Shown: one piece after another, positions 4,196 to 39,092 of the stretch
Position numbering within the stretch: position 1 is the first letter of the stretch
Layout: each line of letters opens with the position of its first letter
NCBI GenBank assembly: GCA_002772695.1
Contig: PFDI01000004.1
Location: 326 to 63,564 of the forward strand
Source: Candidatus Pacebacteria bacterium CG10_big_fil_rev_8_21_14_0_10_44_54
GTDB lineage: Bacteria; Patescibacteriota; Microgenomatia; UBA1400; PJMF01
Length of the DNA stretch: 63,239 nucleotides
Direction of reading: 5' to 3'
Program-made: the position numbers and the translations under genes
The notes under the pieces: generated by a model
The model's input: only the letters and a program-made list of their open reading frames with translations
Database searches by the model: none
Told to the model about the DNA's origin: nothing

Positions 4196-6004
4196 ATGTC
4201 TCGATCTACACAGTATACCAGTGACGTAAAACAACTTGATGGGCTGGTGGAAGAGTTGTTGCAGTGTGAAGCTTTGGATCGAACAAAAATTGAGAAGATC
4301 AAAAAAAAGCATGCACGTGTCAATGGTGATGTATTCTCGCAGTCAGCAATTTTGGACCATTACAGGAAGCTTATGGCAAAAGATTCGAGTGCGACACAAT
4401 CAAAAAAACTACTCGCCTTATTACTCAAAAAACCAACGAGAACTTTGTCTGGTGTTGCGCCAATTACCGTTCTCACCAAACCCTTTCCCTGCCCTGGGAA
4501 GTGCATTTTTTGTCCCAATGATGTTCGAATGCCCAAGAGTTACTTGGCCGACGAACCTGGTGCGCAACGGGCCGAAAGAAATTACTTCGATCCCTATTTG
4601 CAAACCTACAATAGGCTGATGGCATTACAAACCATCGGACATGATGTCTCCAAAGCCGAGTTGATTATTCTTGGTGGCACTTGGTCATTTTATCCAGAGG
4701 CATACCAAATTTGGTTCATCAAGGAGTGTTTTCGCGCTCTCAATGAGTTTGCTGAAAGTGTTAACTCGATAGCCGAGGTAGAAGCGGTTTATACCGAGCT
4801 TGAAGCAAACTTACAAACAGGGCGTAGCAATAATCCAAAAAAAAATAAACAACGATTCGCTGCGCAAGAAATTGACGGACTGGATCTAAAAAAATCATAT
4901 AATAAGGTTATTTCACAGTTATACGTCGCACCAGAAAAAATAGGCGGTTTTGATAGATATCAATCGGCCGACTGGTCAGAGCTAGAGGCTCAACAAATGA
5001 CTAATGAGAACTCGAGGATTCGTAATGTCGGTCTGGTGATTGAGACAAGACCAGACTCGATATCGGAAAAAGAAGTTTTGAGAATCAGACGACTGGGTTG
5101 TACCAAGACTCAAATTGGGGTGCAGAGTTTGCAGGACGCTGTGCTTTTAAAAAATAATCGCGGCCATGATGTAGCAGCTACGTGCAGAGCATTTGCTCTA
5201 CTGCGATCTGCTGGGTTTAAGATACATGCGCACTGGATGGCAAATTTGCATGGCTCTTCGGTTGAGATGGACAAACGTGACTTTGATCAGTTATTTGCTG
5301 ATCCAGATTTTTGTCCCGATGAGCTCAAGGTATACCCTTGCTCGCTTGTTGGTAGTGCCGAATTAGCAAAGTATTACAAAACTGGGCAATGGCAGCCTTA
5401 TACGCAGAGTGAATTGTTGGAAGTAGTCTCACATACGCTTACCAATACTCCAGAATATTGTCGGCTCACTCGAGTGATTCGAGACATACCTTCGCAAGAT
5501 ATAGTTGTGGGTAATAAAAAAACTAATTTCCGTGAAATCGCTACAAGCTCAGTAACAAAACTTAGGCTAGTACAGCCTGATATACGGGCTCGTGAAATTC
5601 GCGGAAAATCTGTGAAACGAGATGAGTTACGATTGAAAATGTTTTGCTATAAGACTTCAGTTGGGATAGAGGTTTTTTTTCAACATGTTACAAAACAAAA
5701 TAAAATTGCATCATTTTTGCGCTTGTTGTTGCCACATCAGCCGTCATTTGTGCCGGAACTTGGTAGTTCTGCAGTTGTACGCGAACTACATGTTTATGGC
5801 CAACTCGTTTCCCTTGGCAGCAAGGCAGATACGAAGCAATCACAACATCTGGGATTAGGAAGCGAGTTACTCGAAGTGGCAAAAGTAGAAGCAACCCAAG
5901 CAGGATATAAAAATTTGGCAGTAATTTCGGCAATTGGCACCAAAGAGTACTACAAAAAAAGACACTTTCGAAATGGAAAGTTATATCAGCACTGTGCGTT
6001 GTGA
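4196..6004 (+). CDS. elp3: Elp3-family radical SAM/GNAT tRNA uridine(34) acetyltransferase
   Basis: CPGKCIFCP cluster motif, PKSY, GGT, ETRPD, HWMANL, C-terminal RELHVYG and QHLGLG GNAT motifs. Confidence 0.92.
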   Translation: MSRSTQYTSDVKQLDGLVEELLQCEALDRTKIEKIKKKHARVNGDVFSQSAILDHYRKLMAKDSSATQSKKLLALLLKKPTRTLSGVAPITVLTKPFPCPGKCIFCPNDVRMPKSYLADEPGAQRAERNYFDPYLQTYNRLMALQTIGHDVSKAELIILGGTWSFYPEAYQIWFIKECFRALNEFAESVNSIAEVEAVYTELEANLQTGRSNNPKKNKQRFAAQEIDGLDLKKSYNKVISQLYVAPEKIGGFDRYQSADWSELEAQQMTNENSRIRNVGLVIETRPDSISEKEVLRIRRLGCTKTQIGVQSLQDAVLLKNNRGHDVAATCRAFALLRSAGFKIHAHWMANLHGSSVEMDKRDFDQLFADPDFCPDELKVYPCSLVGSAELAKYYKTGQWQPYTQSELLEVVSHTLTNTPEYCRLTRVIRDIPSQDIVVGNKKTNFREIATSSVTKLRLVQPDIRAREIRGKSVKRDELRLKMFCYKTSVGIEVFFQHVTKQNKIASFLRLLLPHQPSFVPELGSSAVVRELHVYGQLVSLGSKADTKQSQHLGLGSELLEVAKVEATQAGYKNLAVISAIGTKEYYKKRHFRNGKLYQHCAL

Positions 6005-12932: not shown

Positions 12933-13006
12933 GCGGGTGTAGTTCACCGGTAGAATGACTCCCTTCCAAGGAGTAGAAGAGGGTTCGATTCCCTTCACCC
13001 GCTCCA
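12933..13006 (+). tRNA. tRNA-Gly(UCC)
   Basis: GCGGGTG/CACCCGC acceptor, ACTCC-CT-TCC-AA-GGAGT, encoded CCA. Confidence 0.96.
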
Positions 13007-13007
13007 T

Positions 13008-13032
13008 ACCGGACATATGTCCGGTTTTTTTT
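13008..13032 (+). terminator. Intrinsic terminator after tRNA-Gly
   Basis: Perfect palindrome ACCGGAC-ATAT-GTCCGGT followed by a T run. Confidence 0.7.
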
Positions 13033-13110
13033 ATTTCTCCCCAATAAGTCAGCCTTTTCTTGAGTCCGAGCAACAATTTCTGTTAAAATTTCACCAGCCT
13101 GGAGACGCAT

Positions 13111-13332
13111 ATGACCGTAAAGAGAATAGAACCTATTAAAGACACAGCCATATTTACTAAAGAGGAAATTAAAGAATTCAAAGAACTTGCTCTAAAAGAA
13201 TATGGAGTTAAATTAACTGATGAGCAAGCCTTTGAACAGGGCTATGCGTGAGTTTCATTGGTTGAGACTGTGATAAAAAAGACTCTTGAAAAAAGAAGAA
13301 GGTCAAAAGAGCCGCTAAAAAACGGTTTTTGA
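13111..13332 (+). pseudogene. Small helical protein, homologue of 35130-35324, with an internal TGA (13249-13251)
   Basis: Not in ORF track: MTVKRIEPIKDTAIFTKEEIKEFKELALKEYGVKLTDEQAFEQGYA*VSLVETVIKK...; EYGVKLTDEQA aligns with EYGIELDEQTA. Confidence 0.65.
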
Positions 13333-14112
13333 TACTTTTTTAATCCCTTCAATCAATTCATCAATCTCTTCTTTTGTAGGTTCAGTTGACTTTTTATGAT
13401 CACATTTATTTCTTAGATCAGCTAAATGCTGAATTTGCCTCCAAACAGGCGTCTCAATAACGTTATTTCCTTTGAGTAAGTCATTAAGATCACCAATAGT
13501 AGGGTCTTTTTTAGCGACTTTTGATCCATGATTATCACACACTTGCAAAAGATGTGATTCTAGTACAACTCCCGCTATTGCACCGGCTCCCCGAGCAAAT
13601 CCACTATTATTTAGCTCTTGAGCAGCATCTAACTCTGAGTCAAGTAAATCTGCTTGAACTAATTGCTTTATATCAAAAAGAGAGCTTTGGAATCTTTGCT
13701 TTACAGCCTTTAGTATGTTTAATTGCTGTTCAAATTTTGGAATTGCAGCGCTTTTATCAACAACTATCTCTTTTTCCCATCCGCGCGTAAGTTGAAGTCC
13801 TTGTAAATAGTCCTCGACTACATAATTTTCATAGGATATTTCTTTTCTGGATTTTGGTTTTGCAAACAACCTAGTAAAATCATCTAGCCGATCAGGTAAT
13901 AGTTGTCTGATGATCGTCAGAGACTCAGAGTACCACGACTGGTATGTCTCCTCAAATTTAGGTAAATCTTTTATAAAATCTTTCGCCTTTTCACCTAGCC
14001 GCTCTTTAACTTTAGCGGGGTGGCAAGCATAAAGCATTGCATTATACAGGTGATCACCTTTATCAATGAGAGTCTCCAGATCCTTTTTGTATTTTTGAAG
14101 GTTATTCATCAT
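13315..14112 (-). CDS. HEPN (DUF4145-like) domain protein, putative RNase/defence effector
   Basis: AGAIAGVVLE helix, TIGDLNDLL, R-X4-H motif RNKCDH near the C-terminus. Confidence 0.7.
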   Translation of the reverse strand: MMNNLQKYKKDLETLIDKGDHLYNAMLYACHPAKVKERLGEKAKDFIKDLPKFEETYQSWYSESLTIIRQLLPDRLDDFTRLFAKPKSRKEISYENYVVEDYLQGLQLTRGWEKEIVVDKSAAIPKFEQQLNILKAVKQRFQSSLFDIKQLVQADLLDSELDAAQELNNSGFARGAGAIAGVVLESHLLQVCDNHGSKVAKKDPTIGDLNDLLKGNNVIETPVWRQIQHLADLRNKCDHKKSTEPTKEEIDELIEGIKKVSKTVF

Positions 14113-14162
14113 TCTCCTAAGATTGATTGACTATATCAAAAAATAACACTTTTTTCTATAAT

Positions 14163-14705
14163 ATGATCATGATTTACTTCACTTTAACCGGCAATATCGA
14201 TGCTTCAAATACTCAGGGATTAATCCATTTCTTCAATAGCCAGATTATTGACCAAAACTACACTGATACCCTCACTATTTTTCTATCCTCTATAGGGGGT
14301 GATATTGATGCCGCAGTCCGCGTTTATGATTTTTTAAAGTCAATTCCCAATAAAGTACACACTATTGGTTTTGGGCAAATCGATTCAGCTGCAATTACAA
14401 TATTTCTTGCCGGTGACAAGCGAACAGTTTTAAAGAAGACCCGATTTAGATTTCATGAACCAACCTACTACATGCAGCAATCGGATTCTGTTTTGGCATT
14501 CTTTGAGGAAAGAGTTCGGTTATTCCATCAGCTTGATAAAAGAATGAAGGAGATCACATCTGAACAGACTGGTAAAAGTCTTACTCAAATAAGCAAGCTT
14601 TATTCAGAAGGAAAAATACTGGATACTGTTGAAGCAAAAAGCTTGGGTCTGGTAAGTGAGATCGTTAGTGAAATGCCGAAACCAACAACCTTACCTACTC
14701 CCTGA
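14163..14705 (+). CDS. ClpP-like serine protease (start at ATG 14163 or 14169)
   Basis: IFLSSIGGD, GFGQIDSAAITIFLAG (catalytic Ser), RFHEP (His), EAKSLGLV. Confidence 0.8.
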   Translation: MIMIYFTLTGNIDASNTQGLIHFFNSQIIDQNYTDTLTIFLSSIGGDIDAAVRVYDFLKSIPNKVHTIGFGQIDSAAITIFLAGDKRTVLKKTRFRFHEPTYYMQQSDSVLAFFEERVRLFHQLDKRMKEITSEQTGKSLTQISKLYSEGKILDTVEAKSLGLVSEIVSEMPKPTTLPTP

Positions 14706-14819
14706 TAAACTTAAGAAACTTTTGATGCCGACATGACTCTTTAGTGCAGTGAGTTGTAGAATTAAGTCAGGGGTGATCGACTCACGCAGGTTCGAGCGAA
14801 GTACGGTGACCCGCTCCAT
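14691..14819 (-). other. Orphan recombinase C-terminal tail/att arm at the distal end of the Gly islet
   Basis: Reads MERVTVLRSNLRESITPDLILQL... from the duplicated core, in the same frame as MERV at the tRNA junction. Confidence 0.55.
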
Positions 14820-14820
14820 A
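14809..14820 (+). repeat. att core duplicate of the tRNA-Gly 3' end
   Basis: ACCCGCTCCATA identical to 12997-13008. Confidence 0.85.
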
Positions 14821-14872
14821 TCCGTACCGTTCCAAAACGGGCACGTTTTCGTACTGTACCCACAAAGTTTAT

Positions 14873-15055
14873 ATGAAAATCACACACAGCAACCTTGTCT
14901 TTACCCGAATGTCATATGAGAATGAGCTAGAGCTTGAAAAAGCAGTTGTTGCTAACTCAAAGCAAATGTTTGGGTCAAAATCCGTATATTTTGACATCAA
15001 GAAGCGAGTAAAAAACGGGATGGGCAAAGAATTGTTACTAAGAAGCAATAAATAA
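14873..15055 (+). pseudogene. Probable 5' fragment of a larger accessory gene
   Basis: YENELELEKAVVANSKQMFG..VYFDIKKR looks like an N-terminal domain; early stop with a short open frame downstream. Confidence 0.35.
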
Positions 15056-15298
15056 AGCTCCAGGGCTCAAAGAGCAGATAGAAAAGCTGGTTCAATTTAC
15101 TAAATTCAGTGGTATCGGAGAATCTCTTGAGGGAGCTAGTAAGATGTCTGATATTTTTTAAGACAACCATCCGCTAGTAATATGCGGCTAAACTTAGCAG
15201 TAAGCACAATATGTTGTGTTATTCACACATGACATCACTATATTTTTTGGGATAAGAGCCAGTTATTATAGCAAGAAGGATTTATTGTATTGTCGTTC

Positions 15299-15335
15299 AA
15301 AAAAAACAAAAACCCCCACAGTACTGTGAGGGTTT
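15299..15335 (-). terminator. Intrinsic terminator downstream of hsp20
   Basis: Minus strand AAACCCTCACAG-TA-CTGTGGGGGTTT followed by TTGTTTTTTT. Confidence 0.75.
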
Positions 15336-15360
15336 CGTTCTGTCCAGCTAGCGCATGCTG

Positions 15361-36186: not shown

Positions 36187-37302
36187 ATGTCAAAAATCAA
36201 AGACAAAAACGAACGTATCAAACGCAAATATCTCAACTGGCTACAAGAGGCTGAGGGCTTCTCAGAGAAATCAATCACAGCAGTAGAAACAGCCCTCTGG
36301 AAGTATGAGGAGTTCAGTAGAGATTCAGACTACAGCACGTTCAATCACAAAATCGCTGAGCAGTTCAAGAAGCACCTGGTGAACAACAAAAACAGAATAA
36401 GCAACAAGACACTCTCGCTAAGATCGCAATATCACGTTCTCAGGCACGTTCGCAATTTCTTGACTTGGCTATCTGGTCAAGTTGGGTATAAGTCAAGAAT
36501 CTCGACTTACGATGTCCAGTACTTGCAGTTGAGCAAGAAAGATCGGCGGGTGGCGACCTCTGCCTCACTTCCCAAGTACCCAACCCTTGAGCAGATCAAA
36601 CAGCTTTGTAGCTTTTCAGTTCAAACTGAAATTGATCAGCGGGATCGGGCGTTGATAGCCTTTACTGCTCTAACAGGTATGCGGGATCAGGCGATTGTTA
36701 CCTTACCACTGGGTTGTTTTGACCAAGAGAAAATGCTGGTGCAACAGCTTCCTAGCAAAGGTGTTCAGACTAAGTTCAGCAAGGATATTTACACCACCCT
36801 TTTTCATGTTGATGAAACGCTCGTGAGCTACTTCTTGAAGTGGTATGACTATCTGAAAACTGAAAAGCACTTTGGGCTTGATGATCCAATGTTTCCAAGT
36901 ACGGCGGTTGGTTTTGTTGGTGAGAATCATCATGCTTTTACCTCTATGGGTGTCAGCAAAGAGTTTTGGGCAGATACAAACCCGATGCGTAAGATTTTTC
37001 AAGCTCGAAGCAAACAAGCGAACGTACCTTACTACACCCCCCATAAGTTTAGGCACTTTATCATCAATGAAGCCCAGAAGCACATCACTAGCATTGAACA
37101 ACTCAAGGCACTAAGCCAGAATCTCGGTCATGAAAATATCAGCACGACCTTTCACGGCTATGGTGCAATTGATACTTACAGAGTCAATGAGTTAGTTAGC
37201 TCGATTGATTTTACAGGACTCCCTCAGAACCGAGCTGAAGAAGCTCAGCTTGAGAGAATTGCTGATCTTGTGGCTAAAAAATTGGGTAGAACTGAGCTAT
37301 AA
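36187..37302 (+). CDS. Tyrosine recombinase/integrase
   Basis: LTGMR (R), TKFSK (K), HKFRH (HxxR), LGH, catalytic Y in FHGYG. Confidence 0.9.
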   Translation: MSKIKDKNERIKRKYLNWLQEAEGFSEKSITAVETALWKYEEFSRDSDYSTFNHKIAEQFKKHLVNNKNRISNKTLSLRSQYHVLRHVRNFLTWLSGQVGYKSRISTYDVQYLQLSKKDRRVATSASLPKYPTLEQIKQLCSFSVQTEIDQRDRALIAFTALTGMRDQAIVTLPLGCFDQEKMLVQQLPSKGVQTKFSKDIYTTLFHVDETLVSYFLKWYDYLKTEKHFGLDDPMFPSTAVGFVGENHHAFTSMGVSKEFWADTNPMRKIFQARSKQANVPYYTPHKFRHFIINEAQKHITSIEQLKALSQNLGHENISTTFHGYGAIDTYRVNELVSSIDFTGLPQNRAEEAQLERIADLVAKKLGRTEL

Positions 37303-37309
37303 TGATTGT

Positions 37310-37395
37310 GTTGACCCAGCTTGCAATGGTGCATAAAAAAAGGCAGTTCTGCCAGCGGATCGCATGATTGTTGGGTCAACCAGAACTGTCTTTTT
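37310..37395 (+). promoter_or_regulatory. Structured leader between the two recombinase genes
   Basis: AAAAAGGCAGTTCTG (37337-37351) pairs with CAGAACTGTCTTTTT (37381-37395); GTTGACCCAGC (37310-37320) pairs with GTTGGGTCAAC (37370-37380). Confidence 0.55.
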
Positions 37396-37397
37396 AT

Positions 37398-39080
37398 ATG
37401 AGAATAAGAAAAACACTTACTACCACTAGGTCACGCAAATCTGGACTAAAGAAACAGAATCGGTACATTTTATACGCCCGTAAATCTACTACCTCGGAAG
37501 ATCGTCAAGTCGCCTCTATTGATTCCCAAATTGAAGTTATGACAGAAGTGGCTCGTGAGCATGACCTCGAAATCGTTGAGGTACTCAGCGAAGCAGGTTC
37601 AGGCTTCAAGATAGGTAGGACAGCGTTCAATGCCATGATCGAGAAGATCGAAAATGGTGAAGCAGACGGTATCATTGTCTGGAAGCTCTCTCGTCTTTCC
37701 CGCAACCCTGACGATGCAGGTAAGATCATGGGCTTACTACAGCGGGGTGAAATCAAGCATATTCGAACAGTTGACCGCAACTGGTATCCAGAAGACAACG
37801 TGATGATGATGTACGTTGAGTTTGGTATGACTAACCAATTCAGCCGTGATCTGAGTTCGGATACTCGCCGAGGTTTAGTCAAGAAAGCTGAGCGTGGTTG
37901 GTTGCCAAACGCTATTCTCCCGCTTGGGTATATGCACAGTCCATACAAGAAGTTAGGCGATGAGGAAATTATCATTGATGAAAACCGCTATTTCTTGATC
38001 CAAGAGGGTTTGAAGTTGGTAGCCTCTGGACAGCAAACACCAGTTGAAGCTCATGGCTATTTAGTTAGTCAAGGTGTTGTGGGAAAAAGAAGCGAGGCGT
38101 TACCCAAGAGTACTTGGTACAAAATGCTGGTTGAACCACTGTATGCGGGTACTTTTGAGTATCCAATCGGAAGCGGTCAATTTTACGAATCCAAAGCACC
38201 CAGAGCTATCGAGCCAACTGAGTATGATGCTATTCAAGTAGTTCTAGGAAGAAAAGATAAGCCACGACCAAAGCGACACTTTTTGCCGTACACAGGTTTG
38301 ATGAAGTGTGGCGAGTGTGGTTGCTCTATCACTGCGGAGAAGAAACAAAAAGTGCAAAAGAATGGCAATGTTCATCACTATGTTTATTACCGTTGTACAA
38401 AGAAAAAGGGTGACTGTGGTCAACCTTGTACGAATGTTGATGTACTGGAAAAGCAGTACAAGTCCATTCTGAAACGCATCAAAATCCCACCTGCCTTTCA
38501 CGAATGGGCAATTGATGAAATCAAACTTGACCAAGAAAAAGTGGTCAGGGATCGTGACTTGAGCCTTGAGCGAGCCAGAAATAACTATGATGACTGCCTA
38601 GCTGAAATTGATAACTTGGTGAAGAAATACTTAGACGGGAAAGTGCCAGAAGATTACTATGATCGCAACCTAGCCAAGCTCAACAAAAATAAGAAGATAC
38701 TAGCGAAAATCCTAGAGGGTATTGATAAAAGTGTTGATGAGAACTTGCAAGAGTTGGATCAAGATCTCGACTTTGCCGTGACAGCTAGAAGACGCTTCAA
38801 CAAAGGTGACGATCATAAACGCCGAGAGATTATCTCGTACTTAGGATCGAACCTTACCCTGACTGATCACACACTAGGCATAGAGTTGAAAAAACCACTA
38901 AAACTGGTTGCAGAAATCGCCAAAGAGGTCAATGAAGCTGTGCAAAGGTTTGAACCACTGGAAAATGCGGATAATTCGGAACAATTCAAACTATATTTGT
39001 CTGAAAATCCTACAATGGGTGGTATACCGGATTCGAACCGGCGACCTCCGCTGCCACAGAGCGGCGCTCTAACCAACTGA
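37398..39080 (+). CDS. Large serine recombinase (resolvase + recombinase + Zn ribbon + coiled coil); last ~20 codons are antisense tRNA-His
   Basis: YARKST (catalytic Ser), EDRQ, SRLSRN, PLGY, CGECG..YYRC..C; ends MGGIPDSNRRPPLPQSGALTN*. Confidence 0.95.
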   Translation: MRIRKTLTTTRSRKSGLKKQNRYILYARKSTTSEDRQVASIDSQIEVMTEVAREHDLEIVEVLSEAGSGFKIGRTAFNAMIEKIENGEADGIIVWKLSRLSRNPDDAGKIMGLLQRGEIKHIRTVDRNWYPEDNVMMMYVEFGMTNQFSRDLSSDTRRGLVKKAERGWLPNAILPLGYMHSPYKKLGDEEIIIDENRYFLIQEGLKLVASGQQTPVEAHGYLVSQGVVGKRSEALPKSTWYKMLVEPLYAGTFEYPIGSGQFYESKAPRAIEPTEYDAIQVVLGRKDKPRPKRHFLPYTGLMKCGECGCSITAEKKQKVQKNGNVHHYVYYRCTKKKGDCGQPCTNVDVLEKQYKSILKRIKIPPAFHEWAIDEIKLDQEKVVRDRDLSLERARNNYDDCLAEIDNLVKKYLDGKVPEDYYDRNLAKLNKNKKILAKILEGIDKSVDENLQELDQDLDFAVTARRRFNKGDDHKRREIISYLGSNLTLTDHTLGIELKKPLKLVAEIAKEVNEAVQRFEPLENADNSEQFKLYLSENPTMGGIPDSNRRPPLPQSGALTN

Positions 39081-39092
39081 GCTAATACCACC
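39018..39092 (-). tRNA. tRNA-His(GUG) with G-1; integration target
   Basis: G-GTGGTAT/ATACCAC-C, CCGCT-CT-GTG-GC-AGCGG anticodon arm, TTCGAAT. Confidence 0.95.

Follow-up and report, generated by a model that had tools for sequence, protein, structure and literature searches.

Can a short segment of DNA that carries no recombinase gene enter and leave a tRNA locus with an enzyme encoded elsewhere? The question is raised by a small islet (13009–14820, 1,812 bp) placed precisely at the end of a tRNA-Gly(UCC) gene in a Candidatus Pacebacteria genome. The islet was analysed within one continuous stretch of 63,239 nucleotides (63 kb), hereafter the window. CPR/Patescibacteria have tiny genomes with few recognised mobile elements, and little is known of how they acquire accessory and defence genes. 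With a probability of about three in four, the islet is a non-autonomous, phage-derived mini-island bounded by attL and attR of a tRNA-Gly-specific LSR (large serine recombinase) and is probably moved in trans.

Boundaries, cargo and empty sites of the islet

The features of the locus are collected in Table 1. Within the window, the 12-mer ACCCGCTCCATA has just two occurrences, the two copies of the tRNA 3′ end that a sequence-only reading of this DNA had pointed out. Both copies are exact. At up to one mismatch, 0.10 chance matches are expected in the window, and two or more matches were obtained in none of 100 shuffles. The islet is therefore bounded by hybrid sites that have a short core in common with the target. 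Its composition is foreign, with a low GC content of 0.35–0.38 (13000–14400) versus 0.42–0.47 in the flanks. Upstream of the tRNA-Gly(UCC) are an MFS transporter gene and tRNA genes.

Table 1. Features of the tRNA-Gly(UCC) locus in window coordinates
Feature	Position	Strand	Basis
tRNA-Gly(UCC), putative integration target	12933..13006	+	ARAGORN; 3′ part read as the attB-derived left half of attL
Proximal 12-bp core copy (attL)	12997..13008	+	Repeat search and shuffles
Islet left end	13009..13033	+	Terminator scan; comparison with prophage attL TATCGGAC...
Small ORF	13111..13332	+	46 aa to in-frame TGA (13249–13251); frame open to 13332
265-aa HEPN-domain protein, by predicted fold	13315..14112	-	Motif, AF2 model, PDB fold matches
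ClpP-like serine protease	14163..14705	+	Pfam CLP_protease, 1e-23
Right arm, displaced native LSR 3′ end by homology	14691..14808	-	Tail peptide TVLRSNLRESITPDLILQLTALKSHVGIKSF...
Distal 12-bp core copy (attR)	14809..14820	+	Repeat search; empty-site junction
Original host DNA 3′ of the tRNA (putative B′ half of attB)	14821..14845	+	Abuts the tRNA in L020–L023

Both junctions read on the minus strand as that reading had described. The proximal one gives MERVKGIEPS..., the antisense reading of the tRNA. A 42-aa ORF (14691–14819, MERVTVLRSNLRESITPDLILQLTALKSHVGIKSFLSLSGSR) starts at the distal copy and stops over the cargo, overlapping the last 15 nt of the ClpP-like gene, which ends at 14705. 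The islet left end contains CCGGAC, an inner P′-like motif, and its minus strand encodes S-G-M versus S-D-M in the integrated LSRs. This motif is merged into a hairpin followed by a T-run, which the scan predicts to be the terminator of the tRNA-Gly. On the other side, the host DNA beyond the distal core includes CCGTAC, the inverted form of the GTACGG of the right arm.

The small ORF matches a 73-aa gene in a related islet (L031). For the protein encoded on the minus strand there are over 4450 homologues, not one of which carries a Pfam domain, and no Pfam HEPN family gave it a score. On the other hand, R234-N235-K-C-D-H239 (R234-N235-x3-H239, an Rx4-6H motif) is invariant across 31 homologues, the AF2 model has a pLDDT of 89, and HEPN proteins are its best fold matches in the PDB, with a probability of ~1 but E values of 0.2–0.7. 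By its modelled fold and its Rx4-6H motif this is a HEPN-domain protein, likely an RNase-type toxin or defence protein; no phage match was found for it. The ClpP-like ORF is open from a TTG at 14127, with starts at 14163 or 14169 (178–180 aa) according to the gene callers, and has only distant, generic matches to phage ClpP-like proteases. PADLOC returned no significant match for the islet cargo. Resolvase, Recombinase and Zn_ribbon_recom domains are absent from every ORF of 13009–14820 in Pfam, PADLOC and PHROGs, in agreement with the earlier claim that no recombinase lies inside. As the islet encodes no LSR, it is not a member of the autonomous LSR elements. No phage structural or replication genes and no recombinase pseudogenes were found inside it; LSR-derived sequence appears confined to the right arm and a few left-end bases.

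An empty-site allele in relatives, which had been proposed as a check, was found. Four contigs from other samples (L020–L023) lack exactly the islet and retain one copy of the 12-mer, through which 13008 is joined straight to 14821, in flanks 99.98–100% identical to the window on both sides. The empty attB junction reads ...TTCACCCGCTCCATATCCGTACC.... An islet allele (L007) and an empty allele (L020) have the same sample of origin. Over ~5 kb of flank, no more than one SNP separates the two haplotypes, and consequently the insertion or loss was very recent. A related genome (L002) holds a different cassette and arm variant at the same tRNA. The repeat, the tRNA junction and the empty sites are thus confirmed, and the islet is a precise presence/absence polymorphism in one population. 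Such a polymorphism could also stem from deletion between the two 12-bp repeats.

The right arm and its cognate recombinase family

The sequence-only reading had assigned the distal junction to an LSR attachment arm, and searches with the 42-aa tail support this assignment. An earlier word-indexed profile search returned 8 tiny ORFs only and seemed contrary to an LSR origin. That result was overturned when the tail profile was run exhaustively with HMMER: among the 84 proteins obtained, mostly tiny ORFs, are two LSR C-terminal fragments that end with the tail (P0148 and P0204). Two full-length LSRs (P0219 and P0222) likewise have it at their C-terminus. Residues 208–243 of P0148 are 61% identical to the window arm over 36 aa. 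That the tail is a small protein in its own right (ribbon-helix-helix, Xis or antitoxin) was also considered and dropped; there is no Pfam or PDB match, and only 31 of 84 arms have a start codon at the junction. Judged by homology, the 42-aa ORF is a displaced LSR 3′ end. For annotation, short “hypothetical” ORFs that begin at such junctions would then be displaced LSR tails rather than separate genes.

The last ~30 nt of the arm (about 14780–14808) form an attP-type half-site, with GGTTCGA at 14789–14795 (bp 18–24) and GTACGG at 14801–14806. Across arms, these ~30 nt are nearly invariant and are followed by variation of coding type (codon position 3 > 1 > 2). The arm is conserved beside differing cargo in L031, L032 and the Gottesmanbacteria loci L033–L038. 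The tRNA contains the same GGTTCGA at 12982–12988, bp 13–19 from a GC centre placed at 13001–13002, so the arm copy is 5 bp more distant from the core than the tRNA copy. In the LI integrase the ZD motif occupies bp 16–24 in attP and 11–19 in attB (PMC3783163). The offset therefore matches LSR attP/attB geometry, in a zinc-ribbon-domain motif comparison whose centre is inferred and which is one family-wide observation. The crossover is accordingly placed, from the sequence, at or close to the GC in ACC(C/A)GCTCCA, and the circle junction attP is predicted to read ...GAAGTACGGTGACCCGCTCCATACCGGACATATG....

Members of the cognate LSR family end in one of two ways. Free-form members have the tail as their C-terminal end, and that of the integrated members is antisense tRNA-Gly (UCC, CCC or GCC). 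A cognate enzyme encoded elsewhere, as had been anticipated, therefore exists as a family, and none of its members lies in the 63-kb window. The sole LSR of the window (37368–39080) is of a tRNA-His type, its C-terminal end being antisense tRNA-His, and is colinear with the cognate family at ~26% identity; the proposal that a different LSR family acted at the tRNA-Gly is thus supported. For the same two features this LSR was rejected as the mobilising enzyme. The distal arm of its own element was searched for and not located.

The family was also found in a prophage. A 58,954-bp contig carries the LSR and a tRNA-Gly(CCC) at one end, the tail arm at the other, and terminase and other phage genes in its interior. 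The islet arm matches the attR end of this prophage, in line with an attP-side origin. In IMG/VR only the LSR family alignment gave matches, and single-sequence scans with P0204 and P0219 gave none. At the tRNA side, the window islet shares only ~9–12 nt with the prophage attL and misses the outer TTTGCAA-type stretch that other islets keep. For this reason the window attL may be a poor substrate.

A family of islets and how it may move

The suggestion that the islet reflects a general phenomenon is borne out. A DNA scan detected 117 arms, and all 58 that have an upstream tRNA on the same strand adjoin tRNA-Gly, at a distance of 0.4–6 kb. One viral match to the arm pattern (L040) covers the first 7 tail residues only and was set aside as accidental or incomplete. 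None of the islets contains a recombinase. Their cargo varies widely; among it are restriction-modification systems, HEPN and Abi-type proteins, a 5-hmdU DNA kinase and resistance-type kinases. More than 100 such small gene-carrying islets thus occur in ultra-small (CPR) bacteria, and the limited collection of literature searched contains no description of tRNA-Gly cassettes in CPR.

The following course of events is proposed. The cognate LSR family would be carried by temperate phages of CPR/Patescibacteria, and in the free phage the LSR gene would span attP. Upon integration, the last ~35–80 LSR codons would remain at the far end of the element and constitute the arm, and the integrated LSR body would read on into the antisense tRNA. 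The islet would have retained the tRNA-side junction, with the last few LSR-derived bases, and the complete arm with its attP-type half-site and tail. Between them would lie 1.8 kb with the HEPN protein, the ClpP-like protease and the interrupted small ORF; the LSR and every phage gene would be missing. Subsequently, the islet would be inserted or excised, now or very recently, by an LSR acting in trans from an infecting or co-resident phage, and excision would require a directionality factor. Islets would finally stack in tandem beside tRNA-Gly, which accessory and defence genes would use as a landing pad. We infer this mobilisation in trans from sequence comparison; no directionality factor was identified and no circular (attP) junction was seen.

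The islet might instead be an inert prophage remnant, in which an LSR phage integrated, an internal deletion removed the LSR and the phage genes, and the product became immobile. The empty allele would then be the ancestral state of a sister clone, or the outcome of rare slippage or short-homology deletion between the 12-bp repeats. This is unlikely, although decay does occur: P0204 (L151) is an LSR that has lost its N-terminal part but not its tail, and in L047 and L072 the arms have LSR remnants of 45–70 aa beside them. Some tails carry truncations or frameshifts, islet left ends retain from a few to ~25 terminal LSR codons, and the short phage-type sequence at the window left end and the in-frame stop in its small ORF fit the same picture. 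However, random deletions should yield a spread of remnants, whereas none of the 58 tRNA-Gly-linked islets or arrays has an LSR homologue, the cargo families listed include no phage structural family, and the left ends are of a few recurring types, not random endpoints. The ~30-nt half-site has also stayed near-invariant while the arms diverged, and the near-identity of the two haplotypes speaks for a very recent event. Finally, arm-plus-gene modules are common to different arrays (L089/L111), and one 3.9-kb islet is found at two tRNA-Gly genes, UCC in L065 and CCC in L073, with 99.25% identity and unrelated upstream flanks. The latter suggests recent movement of an islet without a recombinase of its own, although both are short metagenome contigs and transfer of a whole array block or an assembly chimera could explain the sharing.

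Two further explanations do without the LSR. An integron-like tyrosine recombinase acting on folded attC-like sites, the host XerC/D (as for pdif modules) or an HUH/Y1 enzyme might use the arm as its site. Tandem cassettes of one to few genes at a fixed site, very diverse cargo, a conserved element of ~100–230 bp at the end of each cassette and heterogeneous left ends, so that strong conservation is limited to one side of the site, would fit such an enzyme. Nevertheless, it is highly improbable. By homology the arm belongs with the LSR C-terminus and with the attR of a prophage that carries an LSR, and its variable part changes like coding sequence, unlike a hairpin. A reading of the arms revealed neither a GTTRRRY-type core nor a dif-like sequence, the 78 cargo families include a single IS200-type Y1 gene, and one phmmer query, which could miss distant relatives, detected no tyrosine recombinase in 81 arm loci (L040–L120). 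That the 12-bp match is accidental and the segment an ordinary strain-specific indel can practically be dismissed. Direct 12-mer pairs do recur in the window (376 of them), but this 12-mer has a low chance expectation and the indel endpoints fall exactly within it. The sequence beside the distal copy is moreover conserved in 117 loci, with tRNA-Gly next to all testable ones, so both the empty-site junctions and the arm scan contradict an accident.

Two more tentative proposals may be added. Integration, which replaces the native tail by an antisense-tRNA tail, could act as a state switch for LSR activity or stability. It is also possible, if still doubtful, that CPR bacteria possess a cassette system built on phage LSRs, in which all three tRNA-Gly isoacceptors serve as a shared landing pad, minimal units of a left end, 1–4 cargo genes and an arm are captured, stacked in arrays and passed from genome to genome, and the LSR comes only transiently, from infecting phages.

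Relation to known systems

The islets point to a concrete and testable route of gene acquisition in CPR bacteria, through recombinase-less units at tRNA-Gly with putative phage LSR att sites. They also provide a natural collection of LSR attP/attB sites, with a near-invariant half-site of ~30 bp, three tRNA-Gly targets and one tRNA-Thr target. The layout, in which integration would rewrite the recombinase C-terminus, is unusual. Together with the attP/attB pairs, it is of interest for the LSR mechanism and for genome-engineering toolkits.

An attP inside a gene is known from the SSV-type integrases, which are split by integration, and from the integration-dependent immunity of mycobacteriophages. 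As with the LSR considered here, integration alters the 3′ end of a phage gene, and the free and integrated proteins differ. Those cases use tyrosine integrases, whereas here the LSR gene itself appears to be altered and its tail persists at the attR of recombinase-less islets. The SCC and pseudo-SCC elements of staphylococci are inserted at rlmH by the LSRs CcrAB or CcrC. Like the islets, they are flanked by LSR att sites and occur in ccr-less tandem versions, which can be excised by Ccr from another element. They differ in having a protein-coding target, no known phage parent, a size of tens of kb and no known swap of the recombinase C-terminus.

A related general concept is that of the cis-mobilizable elements (CIMEs), described with their tandem accretion for the ICESt1/ICESt3-related islands of Streptococcus thermophilus (Pavlovic et al. 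2004, ref. 54 in PMC3146451). As presented in that source, CIMEs are flanked by functional-looking attL and attR sites, lack integrase, excisionase and transfer genes, are thought to be moved by the enzymes of related elements, and form tandem arrays at the same site. The islet has likewise kept its att sites and misses recombination and transfer genes. Classical CIMEs, as covered there, derive from ICE with tyrosine integrases, whereas the islets have LSR-type sites and probable phage parents, are far smaller (0.4–6 kb) and are very numerous at tRNA-Gly in CPR bacteria. In Dehalococcoides, 15 ssrA islands without an integration module have been proposed to be CIMEs (PMC3146451). They also lie in tandem 3′ of a tRNA-like gene, with a short direct repeat of its 3′ end, and a serine recombinase of ~540 aa adjoins attL on the reverse strand (PMC3146451). 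The islands differ in their ssrA target, their 20-bp repeat, a CcrB-like recombinase with a second small recombinase, and a larger size with rdhA operons; a recombinase tail at attR is not described for them (PMC3146451).

Integron cassettes resemble the islets in carrying one to few genes of very diverse cargo, in their conserved 3′ recombination element, in their tandem arrangement at one landing site and in having the recombinase outside the cassettes. Integrons, however, combine an adjacent tyrosine recombinase IntI with attI and folded attC hairpins. The arm of the islets is coding-like and has no GTTRRRY (R′′/R′) core, and the single phmmer query, with the same limit for distant relatives, detected no tyrosine recombinase in L040–L120. 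Instead of a hairpin, the islets present an LSR attP half-site joined to a coding tail. If the cassette system outlined above is real, it would be an integron-like system on a serine-recombinase and phage chassis.

Borders and inheritance of the tRNA-Gly(UCC) islet

The islet is a segment of the window (13009-14820) beside tRNA-Gly(UCC) that is bounded by two copies of a 12-bp repeat, ACCCGCTCCATA, composed of the last ten bases of the tRNA and two bases beyond it. A single further copy lies 1,812 bp downstream of the first. By chance the window should contain 0.10 matches, one mismatch being allowed, and two were reached in none of 100 shuffles. Read on the minus strand, each copy gives ATG-GAG-CGG-GT (M-E-R-V). 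From the proximal copy this frame runs on through the antisense tRNA, and from the distal copy it forms a 42-aa ORF, the tail, which overlaps the 3' end of a ClpP-like gene by 15 nt. The GC content is 0.35-0.38 between the repeats and 0.42-0.47 outside, and domain searches placed no recombinase in the ORFs of the segment. The duplication, the two minus-strand junctions and the absence of an internal recombinase, all described in the sequence-only reading, are thus borne out.

Coordinates of the features of the islet, its surroundings and the tRNA-His region
Feature	Position	Strand	Basis or remark
tRNA-Gly(UCC)	12933-13006	+	ARAGORN
Proximal repeat copy	from 12997
Hairpin terminator	directly 3' of tRNA-Gly(UCC)		terminator scan
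Small ORF (46 aa)	13111-13251	+	in-frame TGA at 13249-13251; frame to 13332
265-aa ORF	in islet	minus
ClpP-like ORF	in islet		Pfam CLP_protease, 1e-23
42-aa ORF (tail)	14691-14819	minus
Distal repeat copy	14809-14820
Low-GC stretch	14821-15350		GC about 0.37-0.40; both haplotypes
60-aa ORF	14873-15055	+	no family match; between islet and Hsp20 gene
IS-like insertion site	15232-15239		empty-site haplotype; absent from window
Tyrosine-recombinase-like ORF	36187-37302		just upstream of the LSR
Large serine recombinase (LSR)	37368-39080		Resolvase + Zn_ribbon_recom
tRNA-His	39017-39091		antisense to the last 21 LSR codons

The small ORF corresponds to a 73-aa gene in the islet of another locus (L031). 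Past its TGA the frame is open and conserved, and the stop is either a nonsense mutation or a read-through codon. This gene and the 265-aa (candidate HEPN) gene are convergent, with overlapping 3' ends. Two same-population contigs (L012 and L018, ERZ27293414) end within the ClpP-like gene and overlap by 36 nt only (window 14377-14412), a hint of another variant or of interrupted coverage inside the islet.

Contigs of the same population were collected through exact-protein look-ups. Four of them, from four different samples (L020-L023), match the window at 99.98-100% through 13008, resume at 14821 and keep a single copy of the 12-mer; the empty-site allele that had been proposed for a search therefore exists. 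One sample contains both the islet allele (L007) and the empty one (L020), and the borders of the islet are a frequent break point in assemblies. The window is from a CPR bacterium, and the MFS transporter in the flank shares 71-76% identity with proteins from two Paceibacterota genomes. In a relative (L002) the flanks are syntenic on both sides (MFS and tRNA-Gly; RluB, EpmA-like, EF-P and enolase), whereas downstream of the tRNA-Gly lie an APH-like gene and a variant form of the window's distal arm. The islet is thus a discrete insertion that was not vertically inherited.

Other insertions were observed nearby. The empty-site haplotype (L015, L021, L022 and L023) carries an IS-like insertion that is flanked by a duplicated 8-bp target (ACATCACT) and has imperfect inverted repeats at its termini (TGTTAACTTCCTAAACGTTGTGTGCA... 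and ...TGAATGCACACAACGTTCGGGGATTTAAC); only the ends of this element are present on the contigs. On a related Paceibacterota contig (L001:9191-10300) a Fic-domain gene separates the MFS gene from tRNA-Gly, and a short piece of the MFS 3' end (GAAAATTGT.CCAA...) is present twice; this is another small insertion at the same locus on the opposite side of the tRNA. The low-GC stretch beyond the islet, in which no arm-like sequence was found, may be what remains of an older insertion.

The distal arm and the recombinases of tRNA-Gly phages

A word-indexed search with the tail profile returned eight tiny ORFs only. When 1.84 billion representatives were searched exhaustively with HMMER, 84 proteins were recovered, almost all of them 38-136 aa long and with the motif at the C-terminal end. 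The two exceptions, P0204 (369 aa) and P0148 (248 aa), each consist of the C-terminal part of an LSR that continues directly into the tail; residues 208-243 of P0148 are 61% identical to the window arm. P0204 is colinear with residues 218-530 of the window tRNA-His LSR at 26% identity (E 1e-35), which supports the proposal of a different LSR family at tRNA-Gly. As a query, P0204 retrieved about 21 full-length LSRs (487-582 aa, 41-56% identity). Two of these C-termini, in P0219 and P0222, are the native tail (...ERSTVLRSNLQQYITPELSMQIKTLKEHL...), so that the suggested similarity of the tail to recombinase ends is confirmed. The C-termini of P0209, P0211, P0212 and P0215 are ...ER.KGIEPSS.PWEG.ILPVYYAR, with PWKG in P0216 and PWQG in P0217; these PWEG, PWKG and PWQG ends can be read as antisense tRNA-Gly CCC, UCC and GCC, by their anticodon-loop codons.

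This LSR is located at one end of seven IMG/VR contigs (29-60 kb), its 3' end lying antisense in a tRNA-Gly gene in four and in a tRNA-Thr gene in one. A single 58,954-bp contig, whose ends are L153 and L159, has a native-tail arm at one end and the LSR and tRNA-Gly(CCC) at the other. Its interior encodes a large terminase (2.7e-88), methyltransferases, a ParB-like protein and lysis-type peptidases. This layout, together with the LSRs that end in the tail, indicates that the window arm is the attR (distal junction) of this phage family and that the 42-aa ORF is the displaced 3' end of its recombinase gene.

The reconstructed attP (free-phage site), GTACGG-TGACCC-GC-TCCATA-CCGGAC, is a near-palindrome around GC. 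The crossover would lie at GC or to its right, since an A/C difference just left of GC (A mostly in arms, C in tRNAs) always stays with the left-hand partner. The tRNA has GGTTCGA at bp 13-19 from this putative centre and the arm has it at bp 18-24; the zinc-ribbon-domain motif of the LI integrase lies at bp 11-19 in attB (the empty target) and 16-24 in attP, also a 5-bp shift (PMC3783163). In prophages the final LSR codons stand in reverse complement after the tRNA, e.g. TATCGGACTGCATTTGCAAAA... In islet left ends of types b and c, as many as ~25 terminal LSR codons are retained, with a TTTGCAA stretch at the same distance, and type a is unrelated in appearance to the prophage left end. The window islet (type d) keeps only TACCGGAC (S-G-M versus S-D-M), fused into the terminator hairpin, and because of this its attL (tRNA-side junction) may be a weakened site.

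Several related arrangements were recorded. One family member (L156) ends in tRNA-Thr(UGU) and a homologue (L134:10047-11987) adjoins tRNA-Thr(CGU); a change of tRNA target has apparently taken place among related LSRs. An invariant LSR body motif, ILGSNL (alignment A6), resembles the tail start TVLRSNL; in the window LSR (38830-38853) it is encoded by TCGTACTTAGGATCGAACCTTACC, similar to ACCGTACTTCGCTCGAACCTACG of the arm, and may reflect an internal duplication or a second binding motif. At L058:4041-5907, 2.5 kb past a tRNA-Gly islet, is an LSR whose C-terminal ~40 aa are duplicated, inverted, just upstream of its start (ORF 5617-5907), which resembles an inversion-type or tail-duplication arrangement. 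Gottesmanbacteria contigs (L033-L038) also have an LSR in tRNA-His, ~2 kb from a tRNA-Gly islet. No distal arm was found for the tRNA-His element of the window.

Distribution, cargo and movement of the islets

Close relatives of the 265-aa gene adjoin tRNA-Gly in other metagenomes with different partners (a 164-aa unknown in L031, Abi_alpha in L027 and L032), and ~100 bp homologous to window 14716-14816 closes those islets too. The minus-strand frame is kept in three arms, with many synonymous changes. A DNA pattern from the window arm (GGTYCGAGCSAAKTACSGTKACC) detected 117 arms on 110 metagenome contigs. An upstream tRNA on the same strand is present within the locus for 58 arms and is tRNA-Gly in all 58 (CCC 25, UCC 21, GCC 12), at 411-6,084 bp (median 1,278 bp); the islet is thus part of a general phenomenon, as had been suspected, and not a one-off. 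Every arm terminates ...GT(T/G)ACC(A/C)G(C/T)TC, mostly followed by CA, which mimics the tRNA acceptor 3' end. The ~30 nt adjoining this core are near-invariant at all codon positions, and further in the variability follows the order 3 > 1 > 2. Tails are short (~38 aa) or long (~78 aa), the short class being the long one minus 27 aa. Several loci hold two or three tandem arms and, as expected of stacked units, the sequence 3' of an arm in one locus is found 3' of the tRNA in another.

The cargo comprises 79 clusters from 109 ORFs. Pfam matches include EcoRI restriction and modification enzymes, a type I-like methylase with specificity domain, a 5-hmdU DNA kinase, DUF5677, DUF2326, Bro-N, APH, GNAT, NUDIX, HD, methyltransferases, hydrolases and one IS200-type gene. 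The >4,450 homologues of the 265-aa protein, at ~60% identity and from different phyla, all lack Pfam domains; the protein carries an invariant R-N-x3-H motif. Its confident model is all-helical, with HEPN-domain proteins and HEPN toxins as best PDB matches, and it matched nothing in the phage genomes searched. The ClpP-like protein has distant and generic matches only.

The islets could be relics of decayed prophages. Decay clearly happens: P0204 is devoid of the catalytic domain, LSR fragments lie beside some arms and some tails are damaged. On the other hand, no islet contains an LSR gene or fragment (Pfam detected no serine or tyrosine recombinase among the cargo ORFs, and phmmer LSR queries matched only 3 of the 110 loci, none between tRNA-Gly and arm), no phage structural family is among the cargo families listed, the left ends are of few recurrent kinds and no more than one SNP separates the two window haplotypes over 5 kb. 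Furthermore, two loci from different metagenomes (L065 and L073) share a 3.9-kb four-gene islet (99.25% identity over 4,015 bp) beside tRNA-Gly(UCC) and tRNA-Gly(CCC), respectively, with unrelated tRNA bodies and upstream flanks. Given the near-identical haplotypes, the LSR-free islets, the recurrent left ends and this shared islet, the relic explanation is less favoured than trans mobilisation, in which the recombinase-less islets would be moved by a phage LSR, with a probability of roughly 55-60%.

Comparison with known systems

In the literature searched there was no description of such tRNA-Gly islets in the ultra-small CPR bacteria (Patescibacteria). Among the closest cases are cis-mobilizable elements with tandem accretion and the ccr-less pseudo-SCC elements. 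The Dehalococcoides ssrA islands also belong here, with a reverse-strand LSR beside attL and 15 islands without the integration module (PMC3146451). Compared with these systems, the new features are the phage parent, whose attP runs across a gene so that a coding tail stays at attR; the islets' very small size, like that of cassettes; and their abundance at tRNA-Gly in CPR bacteria.
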